From contig CAVQUB010000011.1 in the NCBI GenBank assembly GCA_963716725.1, positions 224,001-288,000 on the forward strand: DNA of 64,000 bases. Direction: 5' to 3'. A program made the position numbers and the translations under genes. Each line of letters opens with the position of its first letter. Within the stretch, counting starts at the first letter, position 1. Of this stretch, positions 37,938 to 52,717 are shown piece after piece. Below the pieces are notes generated by a model. That model was given only the letters and a program-made list of their open reading frames with translations, was not told the DNA's origin and made no database searches. Origin of the DNA: an uncultured delta proteobacterium. GTDB taxonomy: Bacteria > Myxococcota_A > Polyangia > Polyangiales > Polyangiaceae.

Positions 37938-39416
37938 GTGCCCCGCCGCCGCCTCTTCTCAATTGGTGCTTGGCTCGCTCTGCTCACCAGCGCCTCGGTG
38001 GCCCGCGCGGCTGGACCGCTGGGACCGGAGGGGTCGCCGATCGCCACCAGCAACTACCGCATCGATCTGACCCAAGGCGTCGTGCTCGCGGGGACCCGGG
38101 TGCTCGGGCTCGCCGGCGCCTACGTCGCCATCGCCGAAGGGGTCGACGGCAACTCCGCGAACCCGGTGGCGCCGGCCATGCGCTCCCCACACTCGCTCGA
38201 CAACTTCGACTACGACGTCGGCTTTGGGTTCACTCTGCCCGCGGCCGTCGGCGGCACCGACCTGTTCAACAGCGGAGACCGCACCGACGTATCGACCTCC
38301 CAAGATGCCGCGCTCTTCCTCGATCTGGCAGGGAACCTACAGTTCGGCCGCTGGGGAACGGGCGTCTCGCTGCACTACACCACCTTCGAAGTCGCGGATC
38401 CCAGCGGCCAGAGCCTCGGACTCAACGCGCGCTTCGGCGGCATTCGACTGCAGGTCGCCCGCGCCTGGCTCGATGGCCAGTTCGTCCTGGGGCTCGGCAG
38501 CCGCGGGACCGGCCTGGTCATTCAGAACAAAGATCCCGAACCGGGCGAGCCGGCTCAGCTCTTCGACATCGCGGGTGCGGCCGCGGAGATTGGCGCGCTC
38601 GTGCGTCCCAACGGAGCGCCCTACCGTATCGGAGTGGCGGTGCGCTCGGCGGTGGTGACCAACGCCCTCTCGAGTGACGTCGCGGCCAACGCCGACGGCG
38701 ACCTCGTCATCTCGCGCAACGGCACCGACCTCTACCTTCCCAACGAGGTGACGCTGCCGTGGGACATCGACCTGGGACTGGCAGTTCAGCTCGGTCCGCG
38801 TCCGCTCAATCCGCGGTGGGTCGATCCCGACGAGGCTATCCGGCGCCTCGACCGCTACTTGGCTTGGAAGGCCCGCGAGCGCCGACGCCGCGCAAGCGCA
38901 ATCTCGCGGGGAGCGACGCCCGCCCGCAACGCAGCCCTCGAGGCCGAACGCGTGGGCGACGAGGCGCTCGACCAAATCCACCGCGAGCGTTCCGCCCGCG
39001 CGATCCGCACCGAACTCAAACGGCGAGCGCGGCAGCTCGAGCGCTTCTACGTGCTCGTCTCCAGCTCGCTTCAGCTCACCGGTCCGGTCGACAACAGCGT
39101 CGGCGTCGAGTCGTTCATCGAGCGCCGGGTCCAGCGCTCCGGCCGCAAGGCGACCTACACGCCGCGGCTCGGTGCCGAGACCGAGCTCGTGCCCAGTTGG
39201 GTGCGATTCCGCGCGGGAACCTACCTGGAGCCCACCCGCTTCGAGTCCCAAGGCGCGAGAGCGCGCTTGCACGGCACGGTGGGTTTCGACCAAAAGCTAT
39301 TCCCGTGGACAGTATTCGGTATCTTCGACGAAGGCACGGAGTGGAAGTTGTCGGCCGCGCTCGACGGCGCACGGCACTACCTGAGCTGGGGCGCCAGCGT
39401 GGGGATCTGGCGATGA
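37938..39416 (+). CDS. Putative outer-membrane beta-barrel (FadL-like)
   Basis: Signal peptide; R.LGLAGAYVAIAEG...NP hatch-like motif; amphipathic strands; C-terminal SVGIWR. Confidence 0.6.
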   Translation: MPRRRLFSIGAWLALLTSASVARAAGPLGPEGSPIATSNYRIDLTQGVVLAGTRVLGLAGAYVAIAEGVDGNSANPVAPAMRSPHSLDNFDYDVGFGFTLPAAVGGTDLFNSGDRTDVSTSQDAALFLDLAGNLQFGRWGTGVSLHYTTFEVADPSGQSLGLNARFGGIRLQVARAWLDGQFVLGLGSRGTGLVIQNKDPEPGEPAQLFDIAGAAAEIGALVRPNGAPYRIGVAVRSAVVTNALSSDVAANADGDLVISRNGTDLYLPNEVTLPWDIDLGLAVQLGPRPLNPRWVDPDEAIRRLDRYLAWKARERRRRASAISRGATPARNAALEAERVGDEALDQIHRERSARAIRTELKRRARQLERFYVLVSSSLQLTGPVDNSVGVESFIERRVQRSGRKATYTPRLGAETELVPSWVRFRAGTYLEPTRFESQGARARLHGTVGFDQKLFPWTVFGIFDEGTEWKLSAALDGARHYLSWGASVGIWR

Positions 39417-40255
39417 AGCTCTGGTGGCTCGCCCTGCTGCTCACCGTCTGCTCGTGCTCCAAGAAGGAGCCCGCGCAGGTCGAGCGCACCGAGCCCTGGC
39501 TCGCCAACCCGCCCGACGCCACCACTGCCTTGCGCGCAAAGTTCGTCGTCACCGACCGGTGTGAAGCGAACCTGCTTCTCAAGGCAAAGGAGGGCTCACT
39601 GCGCGGCGTAGCGCGCGTCTGTAGAGGCGAGCTCGATCTGAACCTGAGCGATCTGAGCGACAGCCGCGGCACCCTCTCGGTGGACATCGCGAGCATCGAA
39701 ATGCGCGGTGACGGCGACGCGGGGCGCGGCGAAGAGCAAACTCGGGAGGCGCAGAACTGGCTCGACGTCGGCGCGAGCCGACCCGAGGCCGAGCGGGAGC
39801 GACTGCGCTGGGCGACGTTCACCATCACCGGGATCACGAACACGAGCCACCCGAACGCAAACGCGGGCCGACGTGAGCGGGTCGAGCCGGAGGCCGAAGA
39901 GCCGCCGTCCCTGCCCGACGACGACGCCGACGGCGCAGCGCCGAACCCCCGCGAGCGCCGCTCCGTGACCATGACCGCACGCGGGCACATGGTGCTGCAC
40001 AAGGTGCGCGTGGACGTCGAGGTCCCCCTCCGCGCAACCTTCCACTACCGCGGCCGCGCCACCGACGACTCGACCCCGAACAAAGTGCAAATCACCACCC
40101 GTCGGCCCTTCTTGGTCTCCCTCGCGGCTCACGACATCAAGCCGCGAGACGCCGCGGGGGTGTTTCAGGCGCAGGGCATGAAACTCATGGGCACCACGGT
40201 GGGAGCCGACGCACGGGTCAGCCTGTCGGCCAGCGCGGTGCTGCAGCAACCCTGA
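39413..40255 (+). CDS. YceI-like lipoprotein
   Basis: MKLWWLALLLTVCSC; G.LDLNLSDL..SRGTLSVD...NWLDV...ATFTI; ATGA overlap. Confidence 0.65.
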   Translation: MKLWWLALLLTVCSCSKKEPAQVERTEPWLANPPDATTALRAKFVVTDRCEANLLLKAKEGSLRGVARVCRGELDLNLSDLSDSRGTLSVDIASIEMRGDGDAGRGEEQTREAQNWLDVGASRPEAERERLRWATFTITGITNTSHPNANAGRRERVEPEAEEPPSLPDDDADGAAPNPRERRSVTMTARGHMVLHKVRVDVEVPLRATFHYRGRATDDSTPNKVQITTRRPFLVSLAAHDIKPRDAAGVFQAQGMKLMGTTVGADARVSLSASAVLQQP

Positions 40256-40297
40256 GAGGTCTGGTTAGGGGCTTCGATCGGGGTATCCTTTGACCAG

Positions 40298-40804
40298 ATG
40301 CCTCCCGCCCAGCGTCGATTCCGCCTGGCGCCCATGTCCCGCGTGTTCTGGGTGATCACGCTGCTCGTCATCGGTCTGTTGCCGTTGTTCGTGATCTTGT
40401 CGCTCTGGGGCGCGCCGCTCTGGACCGGCGCGGCGATCGTCGCCGCGACCTGCGTGGGCACCTGGTTCTGCATGCGGCCCACTGGTTTCGTGGTCGCCCA
40501 CGACTCCATCGAAATCGTCTGGCCACTCCGGCGCTGGCAGATCCAGAAAAGCGCACTGTCCAGCGTGCGCCTGGTTGGATCACCGGAACTCAAGTCGATC
40601 TTGGGGCTGGCGCTGCGCGTGGGCGTTGGCGGCCTGTGGGGCACCTTCGGCCTGCTCTGGACCAGCAAACGCGGCTGGGTCTCCTGCTACGTCTCGCGGG
40701 TCGACGACCTGGTTTGGATCGAGCGGCGCGGCGCCCGTCCGCTGCTGCTCTCGCCGGAGAATCCCCGGGAAGTCGTGCGTTTGCTTTGGCCCTCGGCGGA
40801 GTAG
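40298..40804 (+). CDS. Membrane protein with bacterial PH-like domain
   Basis: Two TM segments, LRVGVGGLWGTFG, LLSPENP. Confidence 0.7.
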   Translation: MPPAQRRFRLAPMSRVFWVITLLVIGLLPLFVILSLWGAPLWTGAAIVAATCVGTWFCMRPTGFVVAHDSIEIVWPLRRWQIQKSALSSVRLVGSPELKSILGLALRVGVGGLWGTFGLLWTSKRGWVSCYVSRVDDLVWIERRGARPLLLSPENPREVVRLLWPSAE

Positions 40805-40819
40805 GATTGCGGGGTCGGC

Positions 40820-42076
40820 TCACTTGACCGACTGCGCGAGCTTCGCGAGGGCCGCGTTGAGCGCGGCCTGCGAGTCCACGTTGGTGTCGTTCCAGCTCGC
40901 GACCAAGTCCAGGCTCTTGATGAAGACCGCCACGCGCTTGCCCCAGTGACCCGACGCCAGCACGGTGTCCTTCGGCGCGTCCTTCCAGTTCAGCTGACCG
41001 CTCTTGTCGGCGCCGTTGGTCCACCACAAGAAGCTGTAGCTGCCAAAGTGATCGCTTTGATCATCAGGGATTTGCGTGGATCCGATGCTGCGTTGCCCGG
41101 GCAACATGTTCGCCTTCACGGCTTTCGTGCGGGGGATCGAGTTGGGCAGCGGGCTCTCGGTGATGGTCTTCGCGACGGCAGCGGGCAACAGCGCGTTGCC
41201 GTTCCAAGTGCCGTCGTTGCGGAACAGCCAGGCGAAGCGCGCGAAATCCCGCGGCGAGATCGCCACCCGACCGGCGCGGTCTCCGGCCCCGAAGGCGAGA
41301 AAGGTCGGCTGATCCTCGCAACCGATGGCGTCGCACAAGCCCACTTTCATCGTGTCGGCATCCACCGTCCCCAGGGTCGACCCGTAGACCTTCAGGAACA
41401 GTGAGTCCCAGAACAAGGCCATCTGGAAATCGTTGTAGTCGAAGGCAGATCCAGGGGCCTCCGACACGCCATAGCAAGAGGTCTGCGTCGCCAGGTGGCG
41501 CCAAGCGATCTTGGCGTCTTTGTTGCCAAGGCTCGGGTTGAGGGTGGCGAGGCCCGGCACGACGCTGACGACCAAGTCGTCGATGCTGCCGAGCTTCTTC
41601 TGCTGCACGGCGCGGAACAAGAAGTACGAGTAGAGCGGCTTGGCAGCGGAAGCGACGTCGCCGCGCTTGGCGATATCGCCCCAGCTGTACGCCAAATGCC
41701 CGCCGCGCACGATCACGCCGCGGCCTCCGATGCTCTTCGAGAGCGCGTCGAGCGCCGTCGCGTCGAGTCCTACGTCGGCCGGAGTCTTCTTGGTCCAGCT
41801 CGCGCCCGGGAAGACCGCTCCGGCAGCGGCGCTGCCGCCCGCGCCGCCGACTTGTCCGCCCGCGCCGCCGACTTGTCCGCCCGCGCCGCCGACTTGTCCG
41901 CCCGCGCCGCCGACTTGTCCGCCCGCGCCCGAGCCGGCTTGTCCACCGGCTCCGCCCATCGCCGCGCTGCCACCGCTACCTGCAGAGCCGCCGGTAGCGC
42001 TGCTGCCAGCGGGATCGTCTTCACCGCCGCACGAAGTGACCCAGAGCGCCAGCACGACGACGACGGTTCCGCGCAT
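40820..42076 (-). CDS. Serine hydrolase, beta-lactamase/class C-like lipoprotein
   Basis: SxxK (SAAK), FDYND, ISPRDFARF, ASGHWG; 21-bp tandem repeats encode (GGQVGGA)n. Confidence 0.85.
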   Translation of the reverse strand: MRGTVVVVLALWVTSCGGEDDPAGSSATGGSAGSGGSAAMGGAGGQAGSGAGGQVGGAGGQVGGAGGQVGGAGGQVGGAGGSAAAGAVFPGASWTKKTPADVGLDATALDALSKSIGGRGVIVRGGHLAYSWGDIAKRGDVASAAKPLYSYFLFRAVQQKKLGSIDDLVVSVVPGLATLNPSLGNKDAKIAWRHLATQTSCYGVSEAPGSAFDYNDFQMALFWDSLFLKVYGSTLGTVDADTMKVGLCDAIGCEDQPTFLAFGAGDRAGRVAISPRDFARFAWLFRNDGTWNGNALLPAAVAKTITESPLPNSIPRTKAVKANMLPGQRSIGSTQIPDDQSDHFGSYSFLWWTNGADKSGQLNWKDAPKDTVLASGHWGKRVAVFIKSLDLVASWNDTNVDSQAALNAALAKLAQSVK

Positions 42077-42151
42077 GGCGAACACTATTCACCGGCAGGC
42101 GCCGGGGCGCGACGGCTTTACTCCAGCGAGCGCCTGCGAAACCATGACTCA

Positions 42152-43579
42152 ATGACGTTTCGGCGAGCGGCTGGGGTGATGATCGCGTGCGGCCTGCTGT
42201 GTTTTGCCTGTGGGGGCGAGGACGAAAGCCGGGGCAACGGTGGCGCGGGAGGCAGCGGCGGAAGCGGCGGAAGCGTCACCGGAGGAAGTGCCGGAGTTGG
42301 AAGCGGCGGGCAGAGCGGCGGAAACGGAGGCGGCGCAGGAGCGGGCGGCAGCGCCGGCAGCAGTGCTACCGGGGGCAGCGGCGGAAGCGGCGGAAGCGGT
42401 GGAAGCGGTGGCGGCACAGCTGGCAAGGGCAGCCTGATCGTGAGCCCGAAGTCTGCGGCGTGGTTTGCGCACTCGGGCGGCGCGCGGCACTTCTTGTGCG
42501 CTGCAGGAGATCCCGAAGGCTTCTTGTACCGCGGCACGCGCCAGCCCGACGGATCACGCGACGGCGATCAATCGGCGTTGATCCAGAAGCTGGCCCCCAC
42601 CGGAGCCAACGGCATCTACCTCATGGCCGTGCGCTCCCATGGCGGCGATGGTGGTCCGAGCGAAAACCCTTTCGTCGACTCCGATCCGGCCAAGGGACTC
42701 GACAACGACATCCTCGACCAATGGGAAACCTGGTTTTCGGCCATGGATGCCGCCGGCATCGTCATCTACTTCTTCTTCTACGACGACTCGGCCAGCATCT
42801 GGGGCGGCAATCAGGTCCAAGGGCCCGAAAAGGCCTTCGTCGAAGCGCTGGTCAACCGCTACGAGCACCACGACCACCTGGTCTGGGTGGTGGCCGAGGA
42901 GTACAGCGAGAAGCTCTCGAAGGCGCGCGTCAGCTCCTTGGCGGCAACGATCCGCGCAGCCGATGCCAAGCAGCACCCGATCGGTGTGCACCAGCTCAAC
43001 GGGCTCGTCTTCGACTTCTCCGGCGACCCCAACGTCGATCAGTTCACGATCCAGCACAACGTGGGGACCGCAGGCGCGTTGCACTCGGGCATGGTGCAGA
43101 CCTTCCAAGCCGCGGCCGGCAAATACAACCTGAACATGAGCGAAGCGGCGGGCTACGGCGCCGGCACCACTGCCCGACGCAAGAGTTGGGCAACGGCCCT
43201 CGGCGGCGCCTACGTGATGATTCTGGGAATGGACATCGCCAGCACCGCCGTCAGCGATCTCCAAGACTGCGGACGCCTGCGCGGCTTCATGGAGAAGACC
43301 CGCTTCGACGAGATGTCGCCTCACGACGAGCTGGCGCATGCCGGCAGCCAATACGTGCTCGCGAAGCCGGGCGAGGCGTACATCGCCTACAGCGCAAGCG
43401 CCGGTGGCGCCCTCGGATTGAAGGCGTTGCCCGCAGGCAAGTACGATCTGACTTGGCTGGACGCGGCGACGGGCACCGAGGTCGTCGAGAGCGGCAAGAC
43501 GTTGCCCGGAGGCGACTCCGCCTTGCCGAAACCGAGCGGCATCGGCGCTGAAGCTGTCATGTACGTCGAGAAGAAGTGA
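42152..43579 (+). CDS. Lipoprotein, GH-A-like TIM barrel (DUF4038-like) plus C-terminal beta domain
   Basis: Lipobox CFAC; VWVVAEEY; NMSE; YVLAKPGEAYIAY...YDLTWLD. Confidence 0.65.
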   Translation: MTFRRAAGVMIACGLLCFACGGEDESRGNGGAGGSGGSGGSVTGGSAGVGSGGQSGGNGGGAGAGGSAGSSATGGSGGSGGSGGSGGGTAGKGSLIVSPKSAAWFAHSGGARHFLCAAGDPEGFLYRGTRQPDGSRDGDQSALIQKLAPTGANGIYLMAVRSHGGDGGPSENPFVDSDPAKGLDNDILDQWETWFSAMDAAGIVIYFFFYDDSASIWGGNQVQGPEKAFVEALVNRYEHHDHLVWVVAEEYSEKLSKARVSSLAATIRAADAKQHPIGVHQLNGLVFDFSGDPNVDQFTIQHNVGTAGALHSGMVQTFQAAAGKYNLNMSEAAGYGAGTTARRKSWATALGGAYVMILGMDIASTAVSDLQDCGRLRGFMEKTRFDEMSPHDELAHAGSQYVLAKPGEAYIAYSASAGGALGLKALPAGKYDLTWLDAATGTEVVESGKTLPGGDSALPKPSGIGAEAVMYVEKK

Positions 43580-43688
43580 TCCATCGGCTCTGTGCCACCA
43601 AGACAGCGCCGGGCGCACCCAGACAGGATCCCGGCCACGCCCAGATCGTGCCCGCGATGGGCTGCCGCGAGCTATAGTGACCGTCGGC

Positions 43689-44579
43689 ATGAACAGACAA
43701 TTGGCCGTGGCCGTGGCGCTGTTCGCCCTGGGTTGCGGAGAAGATCCGGAAGACGTCGAGCTGCTCCCACCCAAGCCGCTCAACGTGATGACCTTCAACG
43801 TGCTCTGCTCGGTGTGCAACCCGAGCGAGTACGATCCCTGGGACGAACGCCTCAGCTACTTCGCGGACATCTTCCAGCGACACGATCCCGATCTGATCGG
43901 CGTCCAAGAGCTGACTCCGCTAGCCGGCGAGGTCGACTCGCTGCTCGCCGCGGCCCCGGGGCATGGCGCGCTGTTCTTCCAGCAAGAAGAGTGGCCGCCC
44001 TATCCGGACGCCACGATCTTCTATCGGAAGTCGCGCTTCCGTGTGCTCGAGCAGGGCGAGTACTGGCTGAGCCCAACGCCCGACGTGCCACGTTCGACCG
44101 GCTTCGCCCAGCCGCAGCTGCCCCGCCTGGTGGTCTGGGCGCGCCTGCTCGACAAGGCGGGAGATCGCGAGATGTTCTTCGCCAGCACGCACTTCGACAA
44201 CAACGCACCCAGCCAAGCGCTGAGCGCACCGCTGGTGCTGGAGCGAACCGCGCCCTTCGCGGCGGCGCTGCCAGTGGTGTTCGTCGGCGACTTCAACTCA
44301 CGACCCAACTCCGAGGCTTACAAGACCCTCTCCACGGACGCCTCCCACGGCTTCGTCTTCCAGAACGCCTACGATCTGGCGCCAAACCCCGGTGTTATCG
44401 AAAACCAAGACCCCGATCCCGTCTACGATCCGGCGGATCGCATCGACCACGTGCTTGTCGCCGGCGCCGGCGTGAGCTGGAGCGCAACGAGCTGGGCCGC
44501 AGATCTCAAGGTCTACGGCAGCAAGAACCGCTATCCGTCGGATCACTTCGCGATCGCGACCACGCTGGACCGACCCTGA
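43689..44579 (+). CDS. Endonuclease/exonuclease/phosphatase family lipoprotein
   Basis: VMTFNV, IGVQE, STHFD, GDFNS, RIDHV, PSDH. Confidence 0.92.
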   Translation: MNRQLAVAVALFALGCGEDPEDVELLPPKPLNVMTFNVLCSVCNPSEYDPWDERLSYFADIFQRHDPDLIGVQELTPLAGEVDSLLAAAPGHGALFFQQEEWPPYPDATIFYRKSRFRVLEQGEYWLSPTPDVPRSTGFAQPQLPRLVVWARLLDKAGDREMFFASTHFDNNAPSQALSAPLVLERTAPFAAALPVVFVGDFNSRPNSEAYKTLSTDASHGFVFQNAYDLAPNPGVIENQDPDPVYDPADRIDHVLVAGAGVSWSATSWAADLKVYGSKNRYPSDHFAIATTLDRP

Positions 44580-44598
44580 CCGCGGGGCCCTGGCGCGA

Positions 44599-45633
44599 TC
44601 ACTCTTCCGCCTTCTTCCACTCGGCTTGGTAGCTCATGCCGAGGGTCAGCAGTCGCTGCAACAGGTGCGAATAGCGGATCCCCGCGAACTCGGCGCTCTC
44701 GGCAAAGTCCTCACCGTACTTCACCTCGGGGTTCGGGTTGGCCTCCAAGACGAAGACGCGCCCGTCCTCGCGCAGCCGCAGGTCCATGCGCGCGTAGCCG
44801 CTGAGCCCGAGCGCGCGGTAGACGCGCTTGGCGATGTGCGCGATCTCTTTCTCCTGAGCCTCGCCCAGGTCCTTCGCGCGACGGGTCCGGATCTTGTACT
44901 TCTGCTGGTAGTCGATGTCCCACTTCAGCTTGGCGGTGGCAATGTGGTGGGTGCCCTCGGGGAGTTTGTCGAAGGGCAGCTCCCAGACCGGAAGCGTCTG
45001 AAGCCGTTGGTTGCCGAGCACGCCGACGTAGAGTTCACGACCCTCGATGAACTCCTCGGCGATGGCGTCCACGCCGAAGGTCTCGTGCATGAAGGTCACA
45101 CGCTCCACGAGCTTTTCGTCGGTGGTCACCACCGAGGCCTGAGAAATGCCCAGGCTCGCCTCCTCATTCACGCTCTTGACGAGCAGCGGGTAGGCCAGGC
45201 GTCGGGGCTTGCGCGGGCGGCGACCCCGGGGAAATACGTGGAACTTCGGCGCCCGGATCCGGTGCGCCGCCATGATCTGCTTCGACAGCGCTTTGTCGCG
45301 CGCCAGCATCATGCCGCGCGGGTTGCAGCCGGTGTAGGGCCTGCGCAACAGCTCCAGGTAGCTGACGACGTGCATGTCGTAGACAGCGACTCCGTGAAAG
45401 TGCACGAGCAGGTTGAAGGTGACGTGCGGGTCGTGCTGGGTGATGGCCGCGCGGATCACGCCGAGATCACTGCCCACCCCCAAGGTGATCACCTCGTGAC
45501 CGAGCTCTTCGAGCCCGGCCAAGACGTCGTACTCGGTGGCCCACTTTGCGATCTCCTTGTCGGAGTAGCCCTCCACGGTCTCGGGCGGCACGAGATCGTC
45601 GTGCATCAAAACGAGGACGCGGAGCTTCTTCAT
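44599..45633 (-). CDS. ATP-grasp ligase, D-Ala-D-Ala ligase-like
   Basis: PYTG, DKALSK, VKSVNEEASLGI, EEFIEGRE, YARMD, LEANPNP. Confidence 0.88.
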   Translation of the reverse strand: MKKLRVLVLMHDDLVPPETVEGYSDKEIAKWATEYDVLAGLEELGHEVITLGVGSDLGVIRAAITQHDPHVTFNLLVHFHGVAVYDMHVVSYLELLRRPYTGCNPRGMMLARDKALSKQIMAAHRIRAPKFHVFPRGRRPRKPRRLAYPLLVKSVNEEASLGISQASVVTTDEKLVERVTFMHETFGVDAIAEEFIEGRELYVGVLGNQRLQTLPVWELPFDKLPEGTHHIATAKLKWDIDYQQKYKIRTRRAKDLGEAQEKEIAHIAKRVYRALGLSGYARMDLRLREDGRVFVLEANPNPEVKYGEDFAESAEFAGIRYSHLLQRLLTLGMSYQAEWKKAEE

Positions 45634-46706
45634 CGCACGAGCCGGTGGTGACCCTCGTGCAGATAGTTCATCGTCTGCACGGTCAACAAGACTAGTGCAT
45701 CTTGCTTGGCAATGTCTTCCGTTCGATCCGTGCGCATGTCCAACTCCTCGCAGCGGAAGATCATTTCTTCGAGCACTTGATCGATCGTGTACTGGTACTC
45801 GCCGGTCCAGCGGGCGACCATGCGACGGATCTCCGGCCGCACCTTGCGCAAGAAGGCCGCGGCGCTCTTTCCCCGCACTCCTTCCGGCAGAGGCGGAAAC
45901 AGTCGCCTCAGGTCGGCATCGTAAAAGTTTGGGTGATCGAGCCCGTAGCGCTTCTTCTTCGCGGCGTAGTGCTCTCCGAGGGTGATTTTGAGCCCGCTGA
46001 GCACCTCGATGCGCGCTCGGGAGCGCAGCACCGGCTTGGCGTCGGCGACGTCTCGCATCAGCTCATCGACGAGCTCGAGCTTCTTCAAAGCGGGCCAACC
46101 GAGGTAGCGCTTGCGCCAGCGCGAGTTGGGGTCGAGCCACACCGCGAAGCTCTCGGCCCAGTCCTCTGCCGGGTGGCTCTGGGCGTACCACATGTCCAAG
46201 TGCTGGACGTAGCTGCGGCTGTAGGGCTTCGGCTTGTAGAATCTGGAGTACGGCGCCGCGAAGCTCCCGAAGGTGTCACGCCAACCTTTTCGGTAGTGCA
46301 AGCGGTACGCTGTGTCGATGGCGTGGGCGGCCTCGTGCCGAAGGAGCCGCATGCACCAGCGCGGCGTGCCGCCCTCCACGTCGAGGATCTGCCGCTGCTC
46401 GAGCTCCATCAGGCGCGGGTGCGCCAGATAGAAAGGGATGGCGATGCCCGGGACGCCATCTGGCGAAAACCACTCGGTCGACAGCCAGACGTGCGGTCGA
46501 AACCCGAGGCCCCGAGCTTCGAGATCGGCGTACAGGCGCTCGACGCGTTCCTCGATCACGGTCCCCTCGATCTCGATGGGCAAATCGCAGAGGCGCATCT
46601 CGAGCAATTTGTCGTCGGCAAGGTCCTTCCAGCGTGACGCTCGGCGTGCCGGTCCCTTGCGACCCGGCGCGGGCGCCGATCGCGAGTTCGTGCGAGGCGA
46701 AGGCAT
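45630..46706 (-). CDS. Putative zinc-binding metallopeptidase (Peptidase_Mx-like)
   Basis: LRHEAAH (HExxH), YAQSHPAEDWAESFAVWL; 4-nt overlap with the ligase gene. Confidence 0.85.
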   Translation of the reverse strand: MPSPRTNSRSAPAPGRKGPARRASRWKDLADDKLLEMRLCDLPIEIEGTVIEERVERLYADLEARGLGFRPHVWLSTEWFSPDGVPGIAIPFYLAHPRLMELEQRQILDVEGGTPRWCMRLLRHEAAHAIDTAYRLHYRKGWRDTFGSFAAPYSRFYKPKPYSRSYVQHLDMWYAQSHPAEDWAESFAVWLDPNSRWRKRYLGWPALKKLELVDELMRDVADAKPVLRSRARIEVLSGLKITLGEHYAAKKKRYGLDHPNFYDADLRRLFPPLPEGVRGKSAAAFLRKVRPEIRRMVARWTGEYQYTIDQVLEEMIFRCEELDMRTDRTEDIAKQDALVLLTVQTMNYLHEGHHRLVR

Positions 46707-46858
46707 CTGGCCACGCTACCACGGCGCTCGGACGCTCCGAGGGCGCGCCAGGCCGACGCGCGGGCTCGGTCGCCGCGCCGGCGTGGCGTGGCTTGGCGGT
46801 GCTGCCTGGACTCGCCGAAAGCTCCGCGCCATAAGCCGGGCAGACCACTGGGGGCCCA

Positions 46859-48440
46859 ATGTTTTCCGAAAAGAACCCTGCCGATCTCTCCCCGCTCTCG
46901 AGGGTCGAAGCGACCAACCTCGAAGAGCTGTCCCGCATCGTCGCTGCTGCCCGGGAGGCGCAGACCGAGTGGGCCGAGCGCTCGGTGGACTCCCGAGCTC
47001 GGGCGTTGCTCTCGCTCGCGCGGACCCTCCTGGAGCGACGGGCGGAGGTCTTGCCGATCTTGTCCGAGGAGACCGGGCGCAGCGAGACCGAGTGCCTGAT
47101 GAGCGAGCTCGCGGGCGCCGTCGAGTTCTTCAAGCAAGCAATTCGCGCGGGCAAGAAGGCCCTCACCCCCGAGAAGATCAAGAATCTCCGCCCTGGACTA
47201 TCCGGGCAAGAAGGCCGTCGTCGAGCTGCTGCCGCGAGGAGTCGTCGGCATCATCGCTCCTTGGAACTACCCCCTCGGCAACTTCATGAAGGCGCTGGTC
47301 CCCGCGCTCTTGAGCGGCAACGCCGTCGTGCTCAAGCCCAGCGAGCAGACGCCGCGCACCGGGGCCTGGCTCGCCAAGGTCGCCGGCGACGTGTTGCCCA
47401 AGAACTTGGTCGGCCTGGTGCAGGGCGCCGGGGACGTCGGCCAGGCGCTGCTCGATGCTCCCATCGACGCCATCGTCTTCACCGGCTCGGTCACGACCGG
47501 CAAGCGCGTCGCGGTGCGCGCCGCTGAGAGACTGATGCCGTACTCGGTGGAGCTGGGAGGCAAGGACGCCGCCATCGTGCTGGCGGACTGCGATCTGGAT
47601 CGCACCGTCGCGGGCATCGCCCAGTGGGGAATGCACAACTCGGGGCAGAACTGCTCGGGTATCGAGCGGGTCTACGTCGAAGCGTCCATCGCCGATGCCT
47701 TCATCGAGAAGCTGGGACGCTTCGTGGCCTCGCTGCGCGTCTCGCCGCAGACCGCGGCGAGCGATCTCGGACCGCTGCAGAACGAGCCGCAACTGCGCAT
47801 CGTCGAGCGCCACGTGAGCGACGCGAAGGAGCGCGGCGCTAGGGTGGTGTGCGGCGGCGAACCGACGGGCAAGGGCTTCGGGTATCGCCCCACCGTGCTC
47901 GACCGCTGCACGCACGAGATGACGGTGATGCGCGAGGAGACCTTCGGTCCGGTGCTGGCCGTGATGCGCGTCGAGGACGCCGAAGAAGCGTTGAAGCTCG
48001 CCAACGACTCGAGCTACGGCCTCAACGGCTCGGTCTGGACGCGGGACATCGCGCGCGGAGCCGCCCTCGCGCGGCGCCTCTCGGTCGGCGTGGCCCTGGT
48101 GAACAACCACTCGATCACCGGCATCCTGCCCGAGACCCCGTGGACGGGAGTCAAGGACACCGGACCTGGCATTGCGTCGAGCCGTCACGCCTACCTGACC
48201 TTCACGCGCCCACGCACGGTGTTCGTGGACACATCGAGCAAGCCGGACCCATGGTGGATGCCCGCGGACGACAACCTGCGCGCGTTCGGCGAAGCGCTGA
48301 TCGAGCGCCAGCTGCACGGCGGATTCGGGGTCCTCCTGCGACTCGGCGGCCTGGTCGGCAAGCGCGTGAAGGCCATACAGGCGGCCGTGAACGCACCGGC
48401 GCCGAAGGCGCTGCCGGCTCCGAAAGATAGGGTGGACTGA
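46859..48440 (+). CDS. Aldehyde dehydrogenase, frameshifted at ~47183
   Basis: PWNYP, KPSE, FTGS, ELGGKD, GQNC, EETFGP; deleting one A in AAGAATC restores KIKISALDYPGKK. Confidence 0.88.
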
Positions 48441-48534
48441 AGCGGGTTTGTCCCGATCCGAAACCATCCGCGCGCCTGGACGTAGCTATCTGGGCGACTA
48501 TTGGTCCAGAATCGTACATAGGAGGTCCCCGGAC

Positions 48535-48897
48535 ATGCCCCACAAGCTCAGCTTCGCCACCATTGCAGCCACTCTCGCCGCTCTCAGCACCGCGGCCTGC
48601 GGTGGCACGAACGCACCCGCGGAAGCACCCGTCGCTGGGCGAGAAATCCCGGCGGCGTCCGAGTCGGCGCCCGAAGCAGCCGCAGCTGAAGACCAAGCCA
48701 CCCCCACCCCGGCCACGGACGCGACCGCGGACCCACCCGCGGCGGGAACTGCGGACGCCAATCCCACGGATCCTGCGGGCGCCGCGACGGTCGCCCCTCC
48801 CCCCGCTCCGGTGGTGAAGAAGGTCACCCCCAAGAAGGTCACCCCAAAGAAGGCTGCCGGAGCCAAAGCCGCCTGCGGCGCTGGGACCTGCGGCTGA
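48535..48897 (+). CDS. Putative MNIO-modified RiPP precursor, lipoprotein with C-terminal CGAGTCG
   Basis: AGGAGG RBS; signal ending TAAC22; Pro/Ala stalk; KKVTP x2; 11 nt upstream of the DUF692 gene. Confidence 0.8.
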   Translation: MPHKLSFATIAATLAALSTAACGGTNAPAEAPVAGREIPAASESAPEAAAAEDQATPTPATDATADPPAAGTADANPTDPAGAATVAPPPAPVVKKVTPKKVTPKKAAGAKAACGAGTCG

Positions 48898-48908
48898 ACC
48901 GGGGCCGC

Positions 48909-49778
48909 ATGTCGCGCGAGGGGCGTGAACTGGACGGAGTAGGGCTCGGCCTGCGCTGGGAATTCCTCGAGGCGGTGCTCGACGGACCAGAATTGGACGT
49001 CGCATTCTGGGAGGTCTGTCCCGAGAACTACATGCACCGCGGCGGCTACTACCCGGACGCGCTCGCTCGCATCGCCGAGCGCACGCCGGTGGTGACCCAC
49101 GGCCTGTCGCTCTCCGTCGGCGCGAGCGATCCCGCGCCGATGGACTACCTGACCGAACTCCGAACGGAAACCCAGCGCCTCGGCACGCCGTGGCACAGCG
49201 ATCACCTATGCCTCTCGAGCGCAGGCCCGCTCATGTTGCACGAGCTCATCCCGCTGAAGCAGAGCAGCGCGAACGCGATTCGCGCCGCCGAGCGGGTTCG
49301 CCGCGCGCGCGACGTGCTGGGACTCCCGATGTTGGTGGAGAATATCACCTGGTACGCGCACCCAGGCCGGCGCGAGATCCCCGAGGCCGATTTCATCACT
49401 GAGGTCGTCGAGCGCGCCGACGCGAGCCTGCTCCTGGACGTCAACAACGTGTGGGTCAACTCCCAGAACCACGGCTTCGATCCGCGAGCTTTCATCGCGG
49501 CGCTGCCCCTCGGTCGCGTGCGACAGATCCACGTCGCCGGCCATACCAAGACCGACTCCGGCTTGATCCTGGACACCCACGGAGCGCCCGTGGTCGACCC
49601 GGTGGTCGATTTGCTCGAGTGGACGCTGGAGCGGACCGGTCCAATGCCCGTCCTGCTCGAACGTGATCATCAGGTTCCCGAGCTGTCTGAGCTGCTCGCG
49701 GAAGTGCGCCGGCTCACCGAGGCTTACAACCGCGCGCTTGCGCGCCGCAAGGAGGCACCGCTTGCCCGAAGCGCTTGA
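48909..49778 (+). CDS. DUF692 multinuclear non-heme iron oxidase (MNIO)
   Basis: GVGLGLR, EVCPENY, THGLSLS, SDHL, VENI, LDVNN, HVAGH, DTH, LERD. Confidence 0.95.
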   Translation: MSREGRELDGVGLGLRWEFLEAVLDGPELDVAFWEVCPENYMHRGGYYPDALARIAERTPVVTHGLSLSVGASDPAPMDYLTELRTETQRLGTPWHSDHLCLSSAGPLMLHELIPLKQSSANAIRAAERVRRARDVLGLPMLVENITWYAHPGRREIPEADFITEVVERADASLLLDVNNVWVNSQNHGFDPRAFIAALPLGRVRQIHVAGHTKTDSGLILDTHGAPVVDPVVDLLEWTLERTGPMPVLLERDHQVPELSELLAEVRRLTEAYNRALARRKEAPLARSA

Positions 49779-50568
49779 GGTCGCCATGGCCAAGCTGGCG
49801 TTCGGCCCGGAGATCGCCGCGGACGACCCGGAAGCCGTGCGCGCCTGGCTCACCGAGAGTCAGGTGAGCGATGACGACGCACGAGCCATGCTGGAAGAGG
49901 GCGTCGAGCGGCTGTTCGTCTATCGCGGGTTGATCCGCTCGACGCTCCGCGAAGCCCTCCGGAGCGCCATCCCACGGACGATGGAGCGCTTGGGCGAGGT
50001 CTTCGACGAGTGCTTCGCTCGCTACCTGCGCGAGGCCGGTCCGCGCTCGCGCTACCTGCGCGACGTCACCACCGAGTTCCTGGACTTCTGCGCTCCGCTG
50101 TGGGCAATCGATCCCCGCGTGCCGGCCTGGGCCATGGACCTCGCGCGGCACGAGGCAGTGCAGATCGTGGTGGCCTCCGAGCGCGCGCGTCTGCCCACGC
50201 GCGAACCGGGCGAGCTCGCGCTCGCCTCCGCCGTCCGCTTCATCGAGGCGACTCGCCTCATGCGCTATGACTACGCGGTGCACCGCCTGAGCGACGCGCT
50301 CGCCGACCGAACTCCGCCCGCAGCAGAGGCGACGGCCCTCTTCGTGTACCGCAGCCCCGAGCACGAGGTGCGCTACCTCGAATTGAGCCCGCTGGCTGCG
50401 GCCATCCTCGAGCGGCTGATCGCAGAAACGCCGCTCGAGAGCGCCATTGTCGGCGCCTGCGACCAACTGGGCGTGGTCCTCGACGACGAGGGCGTGCGAG
50501 GCACGGCGGCCTTGCTCGCCGATCTCGCCGAGCGCGGCGCGCTGCTCGGCGCTCTCGAACCCAGCTAA
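49762..50568 (+). CDS. DUF2063-type MNIO partner (HvfC/BufC-like) with RRE-like C-terminus
   Basis: RLFVYR, PRT..RLG, DLARHE, YAVHR, LFVYR...VRYLELSP; GGAGG plus TTG start overlapping the MNIO gene. Confidence 0.88.
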   Translation: MPEALEVAMAKLAFGPEIAADDPEAVRAWLTESQVSDDDARAMLEEGVERLFVYRGLIRSTLREALRSAIPRTMERLGEVFDECFARYLREAGPRSRYLRDVTTEFLDFCAPLWAIDPRVPAWAMDLARHEAVQIVVASERARLPTREPGELALASAVRFIEATRLMRYDYAVHRLSDALADRTPPAAEATALFVYRSPEHEVRYLELSPLAAAILERLIAETPLESAIVGACDQLGVVLDDEGVRGTAALLADLAERGALLGALEPS

Positions 50569-50577
50569 GGTGACGAC

Positions 50578-52671
50578 ATGACGGCCCCGAGTTCCCGCGT
50601 CCGCGACTCCCTTGGAATTGCCGGTCTGACCATCGATGGCAAGTACCTGATCGAGCGCGCGGTGGGCGAGGGCGGCTTCGCCATCGTGTACCGGGCCGAG
50701 CACGTGATCTGGAAGCAGCCGGTCGCCATCAAGTTCTTCAGCGAGCTGTCCAGCGTTCACGTCGACCAACGCGACGAGATGCAAAGGGCGTTCATCGAGG
50801 AAGGTCGGCTGCTCACCCAGCTCTCGAGCCAGACCGCGGCGATCGTCCAGGCGCGTGACGTCGGGACCTACACCACGCCCGAAGGCCGCTGGATGCCCTT
50901 CATGGTGCTCGAGTGGCTCGAGGGCCGATCCCTCGAAGACCTGATCGTGACGGAGTCCACGGCGGGACGCTCGCGCTTCACCATGGGAGAGGTGTTGAGG
51001 CTGCTCGGCCCGGTCGCGGCAGCCCTCGACGTCGCCCACAGCCAGGGCATCGCGCACCGAGACGTCAAGCCGCCGAACATCTTCGTGTTGGGCGAAGAAC
51101 CCCGGCACGGCGTCGTCACCATCAAGGTGCTCGACTTCGGCGTGGCCAAGCTGATCACCGACAACACCCAGATGAAGGCCGCAATGGCCAAGACGGGGAC
51201 GAACGTCACGTCGTTCACCCCCCAGTACGGCGCCCCCGAGCAGTTCAGCCGAACCTACGGCGCCACCGGGCCGTGGACCGACGTGTTCGCCCTGGCCCTG
51301 GTGGCCGTCGAGATGCTCTCGGGTCGACCCGCGCTGGACGGGGACGACGTCGTCCAGCTGGCCTTCGCCGCAGGCAATCCCGAGACGCGGCCGACGCCGC
51401 GATCCTTCGGGATCGAGCTCGGCGACGCCGTCGAGCAGGTGCTGCGCAAGGCGCTGTCGGTACAGCCCGCCGCGCGCTACGCCCGCGCGGCCGAGTTCTG
51501 GGCTGCGTTCGAGCTGGCCGCGGGCGGCAGCCGGGCCACCGCCGCGGAGGCCCTCAACGCGACAATGGTGATGCCCGATTCACTGCGTTCGGCCATCACG
51601 CCCGTGCGACCCGCGGGGACCGAGGCCCCGCGTGCCGCGGTCACCGTCGACGCCGCGACCATGACGCCGCGGTCCGCCGCACCGAGCCGCAAAGGGCTGG
51701 CGCTTGCCATCGCTGGGATCTGCGCCGCGGCCATCGCCGCCGGTGCGTTCTTCGCGCTGAGGGGCTCGGGACCGAACTCAGATCCCGCCGGGCCTCCTTC
51801 CTCATCCGCCGCGTCGGCAGCCAGCGTCGCGGCCCCGCTGGGGAGCGCCGAGTCGGCAGCCCCCGCCGCCAAGTGTCCCGACGGCATGTTCACGATCCCT
51901 GCCGGACAGTTCTACATGGGCACCGACGACTCGGCAGCGGCGGACAACCAGAAGCCCGCTCACAACGTCACGCTCGACGCTTTCTGCATGGACGCGACCG
52001 AAGTCACCGTCGCCGCCTACCTCGAGTGCAGCCAGTCGGGCGCTTGCCGGCGTCTGAAGCCCGAAGTGGACTACGCCGGCATGAAGGCGGCCGAAGAGAA
52101 GGCCTTCATGCCGCTGTGCAACGTCGAGGCCAGCGACCGCGGCGATCATCCCATGAACTGCGTCTCGTGGCGGGACGCGGAGACTTACTGTCGCAAGACG
52201 GATAGGCGTTTGCCGACAGAGGCCGAGTGGGAGTACGCCACGCGCGGCCCCGACGGGCGTGTGTTCCCGTGGGGCGACGAGAAACCGACGGTGGCGCACC
52301 TCAACGCCTGCGACGCCGAGTGTCTGAAGTGGTCGAAGCGTGCCGACGTCGGCGTGCTGGTGCTCTTCGAGAAAGAGAGCGACGGCTACTCGGGCACCTC
52401 GCCGGTCGGGAAGTTCCCGGCGGGCAATTCGCGCTTCGGCCCACGCGACGTGGTCGGCAACGTGTGGGAGTGGGTCGCGGATTTCGAAGGCAACTACGCC
52501 GCAACCGAGGCCAAGAACCCCAGCGGCCCGGCTAGCGGCGAGAAGCGAGTGCTGCGCGGGGGCGCGTGGAACGGCGCCCGCGAAGAGTGGTTGCACCCGA
52601 GCTTCCGCTTCGCCGCCGAACCCGACCGCCGCCACCCGGCCATCGGTTTTCGCTGCGCCAAGGGCCTCTAG
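50578..52671 (+). CDS. Ser/Thr kinase fused to an extracytoplasmic FGE/SUMF1-like domain
   Basis: GEGGF, HRDVKPPN, DFG, GAPE; TM; F.MG, RLPTEAEWEYA, GNVWEW, RGGAW, GFRCA. Confidence 0.93.
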   Translation: MTAPSSRVRDSLGIAGLTIDGKYLIERAVGEGGFAIVYRAEHVIWKQPVAIKFFSELSSVHVDQRDEMQRAFIEEGRLLTQLSSQTAAIVQARDVGTYTTPEGRWMPFMVLEWLEGRSLEDLIVTESTAGRSRFTMGEVLRLLGPVAAALDVAHSQGIAHRDVKPPNIFVLGEEPRHGVVTIKVLDFGVAKLITDNTQMKAAMAKTGTNVTSFTPQYGAPEQFSRTYGATGPWTDVFALALVAVEMLSGRPALDGDDVVQLAFAAGNPETRPTPRSFGIELGDAVEQVLRKALSVQPAARYARAAEFWAAFELAAGGSRATAAEALNATMVMPDSLRSAITPVRPAGTEAPRAAVTVDAATMTPRSAAPSRKGLALAIAGICAAAIAAGAFFALRGSGPNSDPAGPPSSSAASAASVAAPLGSAESAAPAAKCPDGMFTIPAGQFYMGTDDSAAADNQKPAHNVTLDAFCMDATEVTVAAYLECSQSGACRRLKPEVDYAGMKAAEEKAFMPLCNVEASDRGDHPMNCVSWRDAETYCRKTDRRLPTEAEWEYATRGPDGRVFPWGDEKPTVAHLNACDAECLKWSKRADVGVLVLFEKESDGYSGTSPVGKFPAGNSRFGPRDVVGNVWEWVADFEGNYAATEAKNPSGPASGEKRVLRGGAWNGAREEWLHPSFRFAAEPDRRHPAIGFRCAKGL

Positions 52672-52717
52672 CTGGGGCTTGGGCCGAGCGCCTTCTGTCC
52701 TGTAGACTCCGCGGTTC

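Follow-up and report, generated by a model that had tools for sequence, protein, structure and literature searches.

The closest described systems are the DAG-RiPPs, defined in 2026 by Chen et al., in which lipo-DybA and lipo-NedA were shown, and the captophorins, made by MNIO-PME1 pairs. Lipo-NedA, a peptide of the EGKCG type, is triacylated and has every one of its EGKCG motifs modified by the MNIO (PMC13056109). As described in PMC13097082, all characterised MNIO-PME1 pairs install 5-thiooxazole, to which oxazolin has been reassigned (10.64898/2026.06.05.730506), and the products generally bind Cu; fontiphorin with seven rings binds up to four Cu, and EGKCG peptides aggregate when loaded with Cu and have proved refractory to crystallisation (PMC13097082). 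Among the bufferins, ~ 16% of Buf2 precursors are predicted lipoproteins (PMC12452194). Two groups have been left uncharacterised by their authors, namely Cluster X, with lipoprotein precursors carrying CxxxxC (Chen 2026, PMC13056109), and a family of CxxxxC precursors (Antoine 2025, PMC12452194).

Gene cluster layout

In the window, that is the whole stretch of 64,000 nucleotides analysed here, three tightly coupled genes on the forward strand encode a precursor, a DUF692 enzyme and a DUF2063 partner, and both the reading frames and the Pfam domains agree with the preliminary description. The precursor gene (48535..48897) has AGGAGG upstream and encodes 120 residues comprising signal, lipobox, tether and core. 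It is followed by the genes of the 289-residue MNIO (DUF692) maturase (48909..49778; PF05114, E 3.8e-87) and of the 268-residue PME1 partner (49762..50568), composed of DUF2063 and NGO1945_C/RRE, with PF09836 and PF22106 above cut-off. The partner probably begins at a TTG start at 49762 behind AGGAGG, this start overlapping the MNIO stop, and its relatives show LPEALE or MQEALE at the N-terminus. This three-gene pathway is real and is conserved in myxobacteria.

The host genome, which is 84% complete, holds three MNIOs, the second of them directly after a Buf2-type lipoprotein precursor. DoxX and ECF sigma genes had been reported as not adjacent to the cluster and indeed neither is: the single DoxX match of the genome lies on another contig and none was present among the 10 next-downstream genes scanned, which are 5 kinases and 5 genes without Pfam match. 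Furthermore, no copper-specific gene was found in the annotated loci.

Comparison with described systems

With lipo-NedABC of Neisseria dentiae the cluster shares an SPII lipoprotein precursor, an MNIO without secretion signal, a substrate-binding partner and the C-G-x-G-x-C-G spacing, but NedA has three EGKCG motifs whereas here a single KAACGAGTCG unit stands at the end of an 80-138-residue tether, the MNIO belongs to another clade and there is a YceI-like neighbour. Following our own sequence rule, the SPII signal comes with a conserved lipobox Cys separate from the putative modified core, as in DAG-RiPPs. The captophorins oxazolin (HvfABC), fontiphorin (FonABC) and gonophorin display the same precursor-MNIO-PME1 order, the conserved iron ligands and catalytic Asp, and Cys-Gly dyads five residues apart (PMC13097082). 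The captophorin elements that can be read from sequence are found here, namely an MNIO with iron ligands and catalytic Asp, an adjacent PME1 partner and an exported Cys precursor, the latter with only two core Cys. In contrast to the described captophorins, there is no EGKCG repeat, Ala/Thr precede the Cys, Lys occupies position 1, a lipid anchor is present, DoxX is absent, and the enzyme sites equivalent to Arg16 and Phe250 hold Trp and His/Asn.

The named families fit less well. Neither the precursor nor the scanned Polyangia and Myxococcaceae relatives have an NCBIfam match, as would be expected of oxazolin/Buf_EGKCG precursors, unlike locus L063, which matched NF050137. The MNIO falls below the NCBIfam cut-offs for HvfB (270.7 against 360 bits), BufB (263.8 against 310) and ChrH (41.5 against 600). 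The bufferins Buf1/Buf2 (BufABC) are likewise MNIO-PME1 systems, some Buf2 are lipoproteins and the Buf2 cluster of the host lies behind the same promoter motif, but the Cys pattern and the MNIO clade are different, with no DUF2282 and no 6/12-Cys Cys-Lys pattern here. Chryseobasin/DybAH shares the lipoprotein precursor with a two-Cys C-terminal motif, but has CPxCGxG, an extra helical domain and no PME1, unlike the present cluster.

The signal or lipobox together with a conserved CxxxxC beside an MNIO, typical of Cluster X and of the CxxxxC family, is found here, and the present cluster, compared by description only, may belong to Cluster X. In the CxxxxC family Lactamase_B_2 neighbours occur in 54% of clusters, whereas there is none among the 10 downstream genes scanned here. 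In the same survey (PMC12452194), the Polyangiaceae and Corallococcus rows shown score 0 for named precursor families, for one Corallococcus genome that has a related cluster the MNIO and the partner are entered and the precursor is missing, and the Corallococcus-type precursor accessions are absent from the lists, the family members being almost without accessions. The Gadgil precursor set (PMC13097082) contains five CGAGTC rows, none with the present architecture, and lipoprotein-like rows of Myxococcaceae and Polyangium type whose cores are different.

The membrane-tethered RiPP first proposed from this DNA hence stands as regards the conservation of lipobox and core beside MNIOs, but not as regards novelty, since DAG-RiPPs, lipo-NedA and lipoprotein Buf2 have been described. 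The minimal form and its conserved partner gene of lipid-binding fold appear not to have been described before in the sources consulted, although survey supplements may list the family. The additions are the minimal one-site design, an altered pocket, a shared ECF promoter and the YceI neighbour; no new class is established. By analogy, the cluster would work like a lipidated captophorin in its chemistry and metal, yet it lies outside the oxazolin, bufferin and chryseobasin families. The explanation that we consider fairly probable is a Polyangia variant of captophorin and DAG-RiPP, with 5-thiooxazoles on a lipid tether, about one Cu site, ECF control and a YceI-fold partner.

Precursor peptide

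Of the three Cys in the precursor, C22 belongs to T-A-A-C and C114/C119 to the CGAGTCG at the C-terminus. The lipobox-like TAAC, the Pro/Ala/Thr stalk and the restriction of the two further Cys to CGAGTCG, all noted in the initial account, are thus confirmed in the sequence. Residues 1-21 form an SPII-type signal with Cys22 as lipobox Cys, residues 32-40 a conserved PV..E[VI]P motif, Pro/Ala/Thr make up 64% of residues 23-94, and in the C-terminal part a Lys-rich stretch leads into the core KAACGAGTCG. In the AlphaFold2 model the signal helix (7-18) is the sole folded element (pTM 0.20), and no match was found in Pfam or NCBIfam. The three strain differences inside the gene (48627, 48630 and 48882) are all synonymous third-position changes.

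A profile search returned 54 further precursor homologues at E<=1e-5, all of them lacking Pfam domains and informative functional names, and because of these homologues the reading frame is not a chance one. It is hardly credible that the precursor is SPI-cleaved and soluble, or an unrelated lipoprotein that happens to lie beside an MNIO: the TAAC is a non-canonical lipobox, where relatives have LVAC, AVAC or LTGC, but an alignment of 49 members shows Cys22 and the core to be invariant and the middle to be variable, the lipobox is kept in all 32 precursors of the clade defined below, and the precursor type tracks the MNIO tree. No convincing stand-alone precursor was found elsewhere in the genome, nor beside unlinked YceI-like genes (20 stretches). 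Three Myxococcota clusters in the ESM Atlas (scores 0.92, 0.92 and 0.88) have low recognition value and are given as a lead only. Contigs of 147-164 nt in two metatranscriptome assemblies of one study were set aside as a sign of precursor expression, being shallow, possibly DNA and found with the same stretch.

Conservation across MNIO loci

In all, 266 MNIO loci were gathered, of which 265 gave a tblastn match and 254 were left after duplicate removal. They came from the best 80 of 173 query relatives, from 149 of the matches listed in a search of 401 genomes of the phylum (122 more being unlisted), from 30 gammaproteobacterial loci and from smaller added sets, a sample biased toward query-like sequences. 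Among the matches listed, the nearest named relatives are Polyangiaceae MAGs with 78-84% identity. In a FastTree tree of the 254 MNIOs the query belongs to a clade of 46 tips (0.988) made up of Polyangiaceae and Nannocystaceae, with an inner clade of 23 tips (0.971) around it, and HvfB-type (27 tips) and bufferin-type (74 tips) MNIOs are separate.

A precursor lies directly upstream of the MNIO in 32 of the 46 clade loci. These precursors, chosen by the MNIO tree, have a lipobox in 32/32 cases, called by our own sequence rule and not by SignalP, and a terminal CGxG[TS]C in 28/32, the core being 87-138 residues past the lipid Cys; the conservation of lipobox plus C-terminal CGxGxC beside orthologous MNIOs, which the preliminary description had put forward as a check, is hereby observed. 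Among the 14 loci with no adjacent precursor, three have it displaced by ~ 2.3 kb through an inserted gene, one ends at a contig edge, one (L019) has a core-less lipoprotein and one (L017) has lost it. A reverse-strand search near six precursor-less loci gave no match, while in L023 and L025 the precursor looks, by eye, divergently encoded. The PME1 profile matches after the MNIO in 35/46 clade loci, and three of the 11 others are near locus ends.

Pooling the family gave 85 sequences, for which lipobox counts are partly circular in the case of profile-found members. The tether measures 80-138 residues, an E[VI]P-type motif follows soon after the lipobox in 75, 82 have Gly or Ala as residue +2, 80 have a terminal core and 64 have just two core Cys. 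Among the 80 with a terminal core, the position three ahead of the first core Cys is most often Lys (37), the chain ends within one residue of the last Cys in 67, and the 18 residues before the core contain a median of 5 Lys/Arg, with at least 4 in 75. This basic stretch would be expected if lipid and tether were an export and holding device only, from which a protease cut in the Lys-rich stretch frees a short soluble metallophore, and a release of this kind has been proposed for a Bacteroidota DAG-RiPP cluster that includes a prolyl oligopeptidase. Such a release is very unlikely in our view: a protease is absent among the 10 next-downstream genes scanned, and the basic stretch may just as well pair with the acidic residue that follows Trp in the MNIO.

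Other myxobacterial clades have lipoproteins with SCGEGSCG, SCGAGSCG or KCGEGKCG units, some of them mixed within one chain. The core can therefore be seen as a drifted EGKCG-type unit. Indeed, the likeness in CxxxxC spacing to EGKCG precursors, pointed out at the outset, is an identity with EGKCGEGKCG, and three myxobacterial intermediates (L107, L120 and L140) carry both SCGEGSCG and KCGEGKCG.

MNIO enzyme and its pocket

The MNIO has no signal peptide, and its closest solved structure is 3BWW (E 5.5e-45). Its metal-ligand motifs had been described as intact, and in the alignment of 254 MNIOs the ten metal-ligand and active-site positions checked, as well as the catalytic Asp, do hold the consensus residues. 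FonB selectivity is set by Arg15/Arg16 and Phe250 (PMC13097082); these sites were mapped by motif, FonB itself being outside the alignment, and correspond here to R-W-E at Arg15/Arg16 and D-H at Asp249/Phe250. With the same mapping, the HvfB-type clade has Arg at the Arg16 site in 26/27 and Phe at the Phe250 site in 21/27, and bufferin-type enzymes have Asp at the latter in 52/74. The inner clade shows Trp at the Arg16 site in 23/23, followed by Asp or Glu, with Asn or His at the Phe250 site, and over the whole clade Trp is found in 39/46. A natural Arg16-to-Trp, Phe250-to-His/Asn enzyme offers a direct test of the published selectivity model.

FonBC tolerates Ala or Thr in front of Cys, as in EAACGEGACG, and requires Gly/Ala behind it (PMC13097082), a substrate range that fits the A-C-G and T-C-G of the present core. 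Arg at position 1 blocks turnover by wild-type FonB (PMC13097082), and Lys stands at this position here. The residues give a hint that the altered pocket fits a Lys-led core, Lys replacing Glu before the core, albeit with one origin only. Co-evolution between the Arg16 site and an acidic position 1 was considered and rejected: there are 4 independent pairs only, for which a sign test is not significant, and the Sandaracinaceae-like clade, which lost the Arg and kept Glu at position 1, counts against it. The mean acidic fraction at position 1 is 0.12 with Trp (n=26), 0.70 with Arg (n=58) and 0.66 with other residues (n=60).

In a 44-row IQ-TREE tree the query clade lies outside the group of HvfB-type and bufferin-type enzymes (support 86, with a long-branch outgroup). 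The 5-thiooxazole chemistry is thus not bracketed by the tree and a different chemistry is possible on the terminal Cys pair, either a DybH-like cross-link or macrocycle or a rearrangement of the C-terminus at its penultimate Cys. The changed selectivity residues and a core that consists of just one terminal pair and contains an invariant Thr, mostly at the very chain end, go in this direction. We nevertheless judge it quite unlikely, given that CPxCGxG is lacking, the ChrH score is far under its cut-off, the 289 residues leave no C-terminal bundle, a PME1 partner is present, and the internal unit repeats or 3-8 extra residues of some family members fit heterocycles formed at each Cys.

ECF-type promoter

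An ECF-sigma-type promoter, GAAAC-N16-CGTA, is found on the forward strand at 48460..48484 and starts 75 nt before the precursor start; it was missed in the first sequence reading, as was the YceI-like gene. TGAAAC/CGTA is the SigW-type ECF consensus (PMC5758882), and the promoter matches this envelope-stress consensus. The motif G[AT]AAC-N16-CGTA is present upstream in 15/16 inner-clade and 19/32 clade loci against 0.03 expected from shuffles, and on the reverse strand of the clade loci in none. Since the motif was first spotted by eye in this clade, its count there is not independent. Independent sites are those of the Sandaracinaceae-like clade (18/32 loci, ~ 190 nt upstream), those before the displaced precursors of L010, L015 and L028, and that before the bufferin-2 cluster of the host genome. 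Elsewhere the motif occurs in 6/44 other myxobacterial, 3/58 bufferin-type and 0/23 HvfB-type loci. It also precedes the YceI gene in three tightly coupled loci and in three Corallococcus loci.

The genome contains 26 strict matches, most of them inside genes, the convincing ones being those of the cluster operon and of the Buf2 cluster only. A scan for sigma-70 promoters found none, and sigma region-4 matches number 61 in the genome. No link of the motif to copper was found in 20 listed matches of sigma-70 type or in the parts of the literature examined. The shared promoter provides a route to the inducer and the sigma factor.

YceI-like neighbour

A divergent YceI-fold lipoprotein gene (39413..40255, forward strand) was recognised from a weak Pfam YceI match, an AlphaFold2 model, Foldseek and linkage. 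In close relatives this gene lies directly upstream of the promoter; here it is 8.2 kb away, split off by an insertion of unrelated genes (40243..48443) whose boundaries were set by blastn and which is absent from relatives L004 and L005. Most of the inserted block is covered by contigs from run X5. The Pfam match is below cut-off here (E 0.0035) and above it in L004. In the model (pLDDT 89.7), the protein is predicted to have the extended eight-stranded beta-barrel of YceI/BcnA, and Foldseek matches YceI/BcnA structures at E 5e-9, with probability 1.00 and 10-13% identity.

Other loci were searched with a profile from seven seeds, some of them having only 1.5 kb of flank so that misses are possible. 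A same-strand YceI-like gene is upstream in 30/45 informative clade loci, 20/23 in the inner clade, mostly 20-210 nt from the precursor, compared to 0/68 bufferin-type, 0/24 HvfB-type, 0/35 Sandaracinaceae-like and 4/44 other myxobacterial loci, the four being all Corallococcus. In eight further loci of several clades it is downstream of the MNIO. Most copies have a lipobox, and their tree broadly follows the MNIO subclades; the Corallococcus YceI is of a different subfamily (pairwise E 0.23). Among the 18 family genomes that have the gene, 5 carry it away from any clade MNIO, and the host genome has one unlinked paralogue. Three unlinked copies (L270, L277 and L280) have retained the promoter motif, an observation in favour of co-regulation rather than of a physical complex. 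Among the papers listed, no literature coupling YceI with DUF692/MNIO was found, the main text of three MNIO surveys being without YceI, and the linkage hence indicates a partner absent from those texts. Among the matches listed, no DUF692 literature naming myxobacteria was found.

Given this neighbour, the same lipidated, MNIO-modified peptide could, along with the YceI-fold protein, serve to defend the envelope in redox terms or against lipid peroxides instead of chelating copper. The conserved partner has the predicted fold of BcnA, which protects against lipid peroxyl radicals (PMC9113575), the promoter is of the envelope-stress type, the distinct YceI subfamily at the same Corallococcus position suggests repeated recruitment, and one site per chain makes a poor bulk Cu sink. 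Such a role is unlikely all the same, as characterised 5-thiooxazole peptides generally bind Cu and the promoter is common to the Buf2-type cluster. Copper and oxidative stress overlap, so that both roles may coexist.

Proposed mechanism

Under the captophorin/DAG-RiPP explanation, an unlinked ECF sigma factor acting at the observed motif would transcribe the precursor, MNIO and partner genes as well as the bufferin-2 cluster. In the cytoplasm, the MNIO-PME1 pair would oxidise Cys114 and Cys119 to 5-thiooxazoles (-4 Da each), like the characterised pairs. Sec, Lgt, LspA and Lnt would then export the peptide and lipidate the conserved Cys22, as for NedA and DybA. The Gly at +2 would speak against inner-membrane retention; based on the M. 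xanthus sorting rules used, Lys/Asp at +2 and Ala at +7 (PMC3222651), neither of which is present, we infer an outer-membrane or periplasm-facing location. The product, by analogy, is probably a peptide anchored to the membrane, whose long flexible tether ends in a single copper-binding tip, i.e. an unstructured chain of ~ 99 residues whose one two-heterocycle site would hold about one copper ion. Within the envelope it would act as a buffer against surplus Cu or related redox stress, and the linked YceI-fold lipoprotein could be a co-regulated envelope-protection partner where other clusters have DoxX.

More speculatively, and with a limited chance of being right, the two lipoproteins may form an envelope device of Polyangia in which the tip is a copper capture-and-hand-off arm across the periplasm or at the surface rather than a sink. 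The co-evolving YceI-fold lipoprotein would carry the lipid anchor of the peptide or give quinone-based redox support in place of DoxX, and the re-tuned pocket (Arg-Trp-acid; Asn/His) would take Lys-led Ala/Thr-Cys-Gly cores that FonB-type enzymes refuse, possibly with other chemistry. The tether of this arm is never shorter than ~ 80 residues.

Whichever the role, the precursor is the simplest natural captophorin-like substrate in the sample, one two-Cys unit ending a dispensable-looking tether. Considering that EGKCG peptides aggregate with Cu and resisted crystallisation, a one-site peptide could give a first clean Cu stoichiometry and structure. Low-complexity tethers as such are common in the host genome, being found in 171 of 468 crudely predicted lipoproteins.

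Genes adjoining the main operon

The MNIO operon is preceded in the window by an aldehyde dehydrogenase gene split into two ORFs (46859-48440). One base, at 47183, is missing from the contigs of two other runs, so the split reflects a frameshift of the window strain or of its assembly. The 8.2-kb inserted block also carries, on the minus strand, neighbouring genes for a D-Ala-D-Ala-ligase-like ATP-grasp protein and a putative zinc metallopeptidase (44599-46706). On the 3' side of the partner gene lie a Ser/Thr kinase carrying an FGE-sulfatase domain at its C-terminus and then a TPR protein (50578-55273), and the kinase occupies the equivalent position in several inner-clade relatives.

Related sites elsewhere in the genome

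As in the window operon, the GAAAC-N16-CGTA motif is present upstream of a second MNIO cluster of the same genome, which has a Buf2-type lipoprotein precursor (contig C32, locus L001, 2380-2650, minus strand). A further match, on contig C21 near 167581 (plus strand), lies 5' of a lipoprotein gene with a CxxC thioredoxin-like motif, a possible candidate member of the same regulon. An unlinked paralogue of the YceI-like lipoprotein (contig C34, 123579-124517) clusters with copies from other Polyangiaceae in which the gene is linked to an MNIO.

Precursor variation among MNIO loci

In one myxobacterial MNIO clade, the lipoprotein precursors carry GCP repeats (GCPAGCPT..., GCPGTTA...; loci L150, L171, L176, L187, L194, L197 and L210), a core that is not among the types named in those portions of the published MNIO-precursor literature that were compared. 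Judged by the published study of FonB (PMC13097082), this enzyme would reject the Pro that follows Cys in these repeats.

Within the clade of the window enzyme, the Cys core is lost from the upstream lipoprotein, or the lipoprotein is absent, at L019 (3497-3919), L017 and L030/L031, while the MNIO is retained and usually the partner too. At L008, L010, L015 and L028 an IgGFc-binding-domain gene is interposed between precursor and MNIO, and promoter-like GAAC/C-N-CGTA sites are visible 5' of each of the two separated parts.
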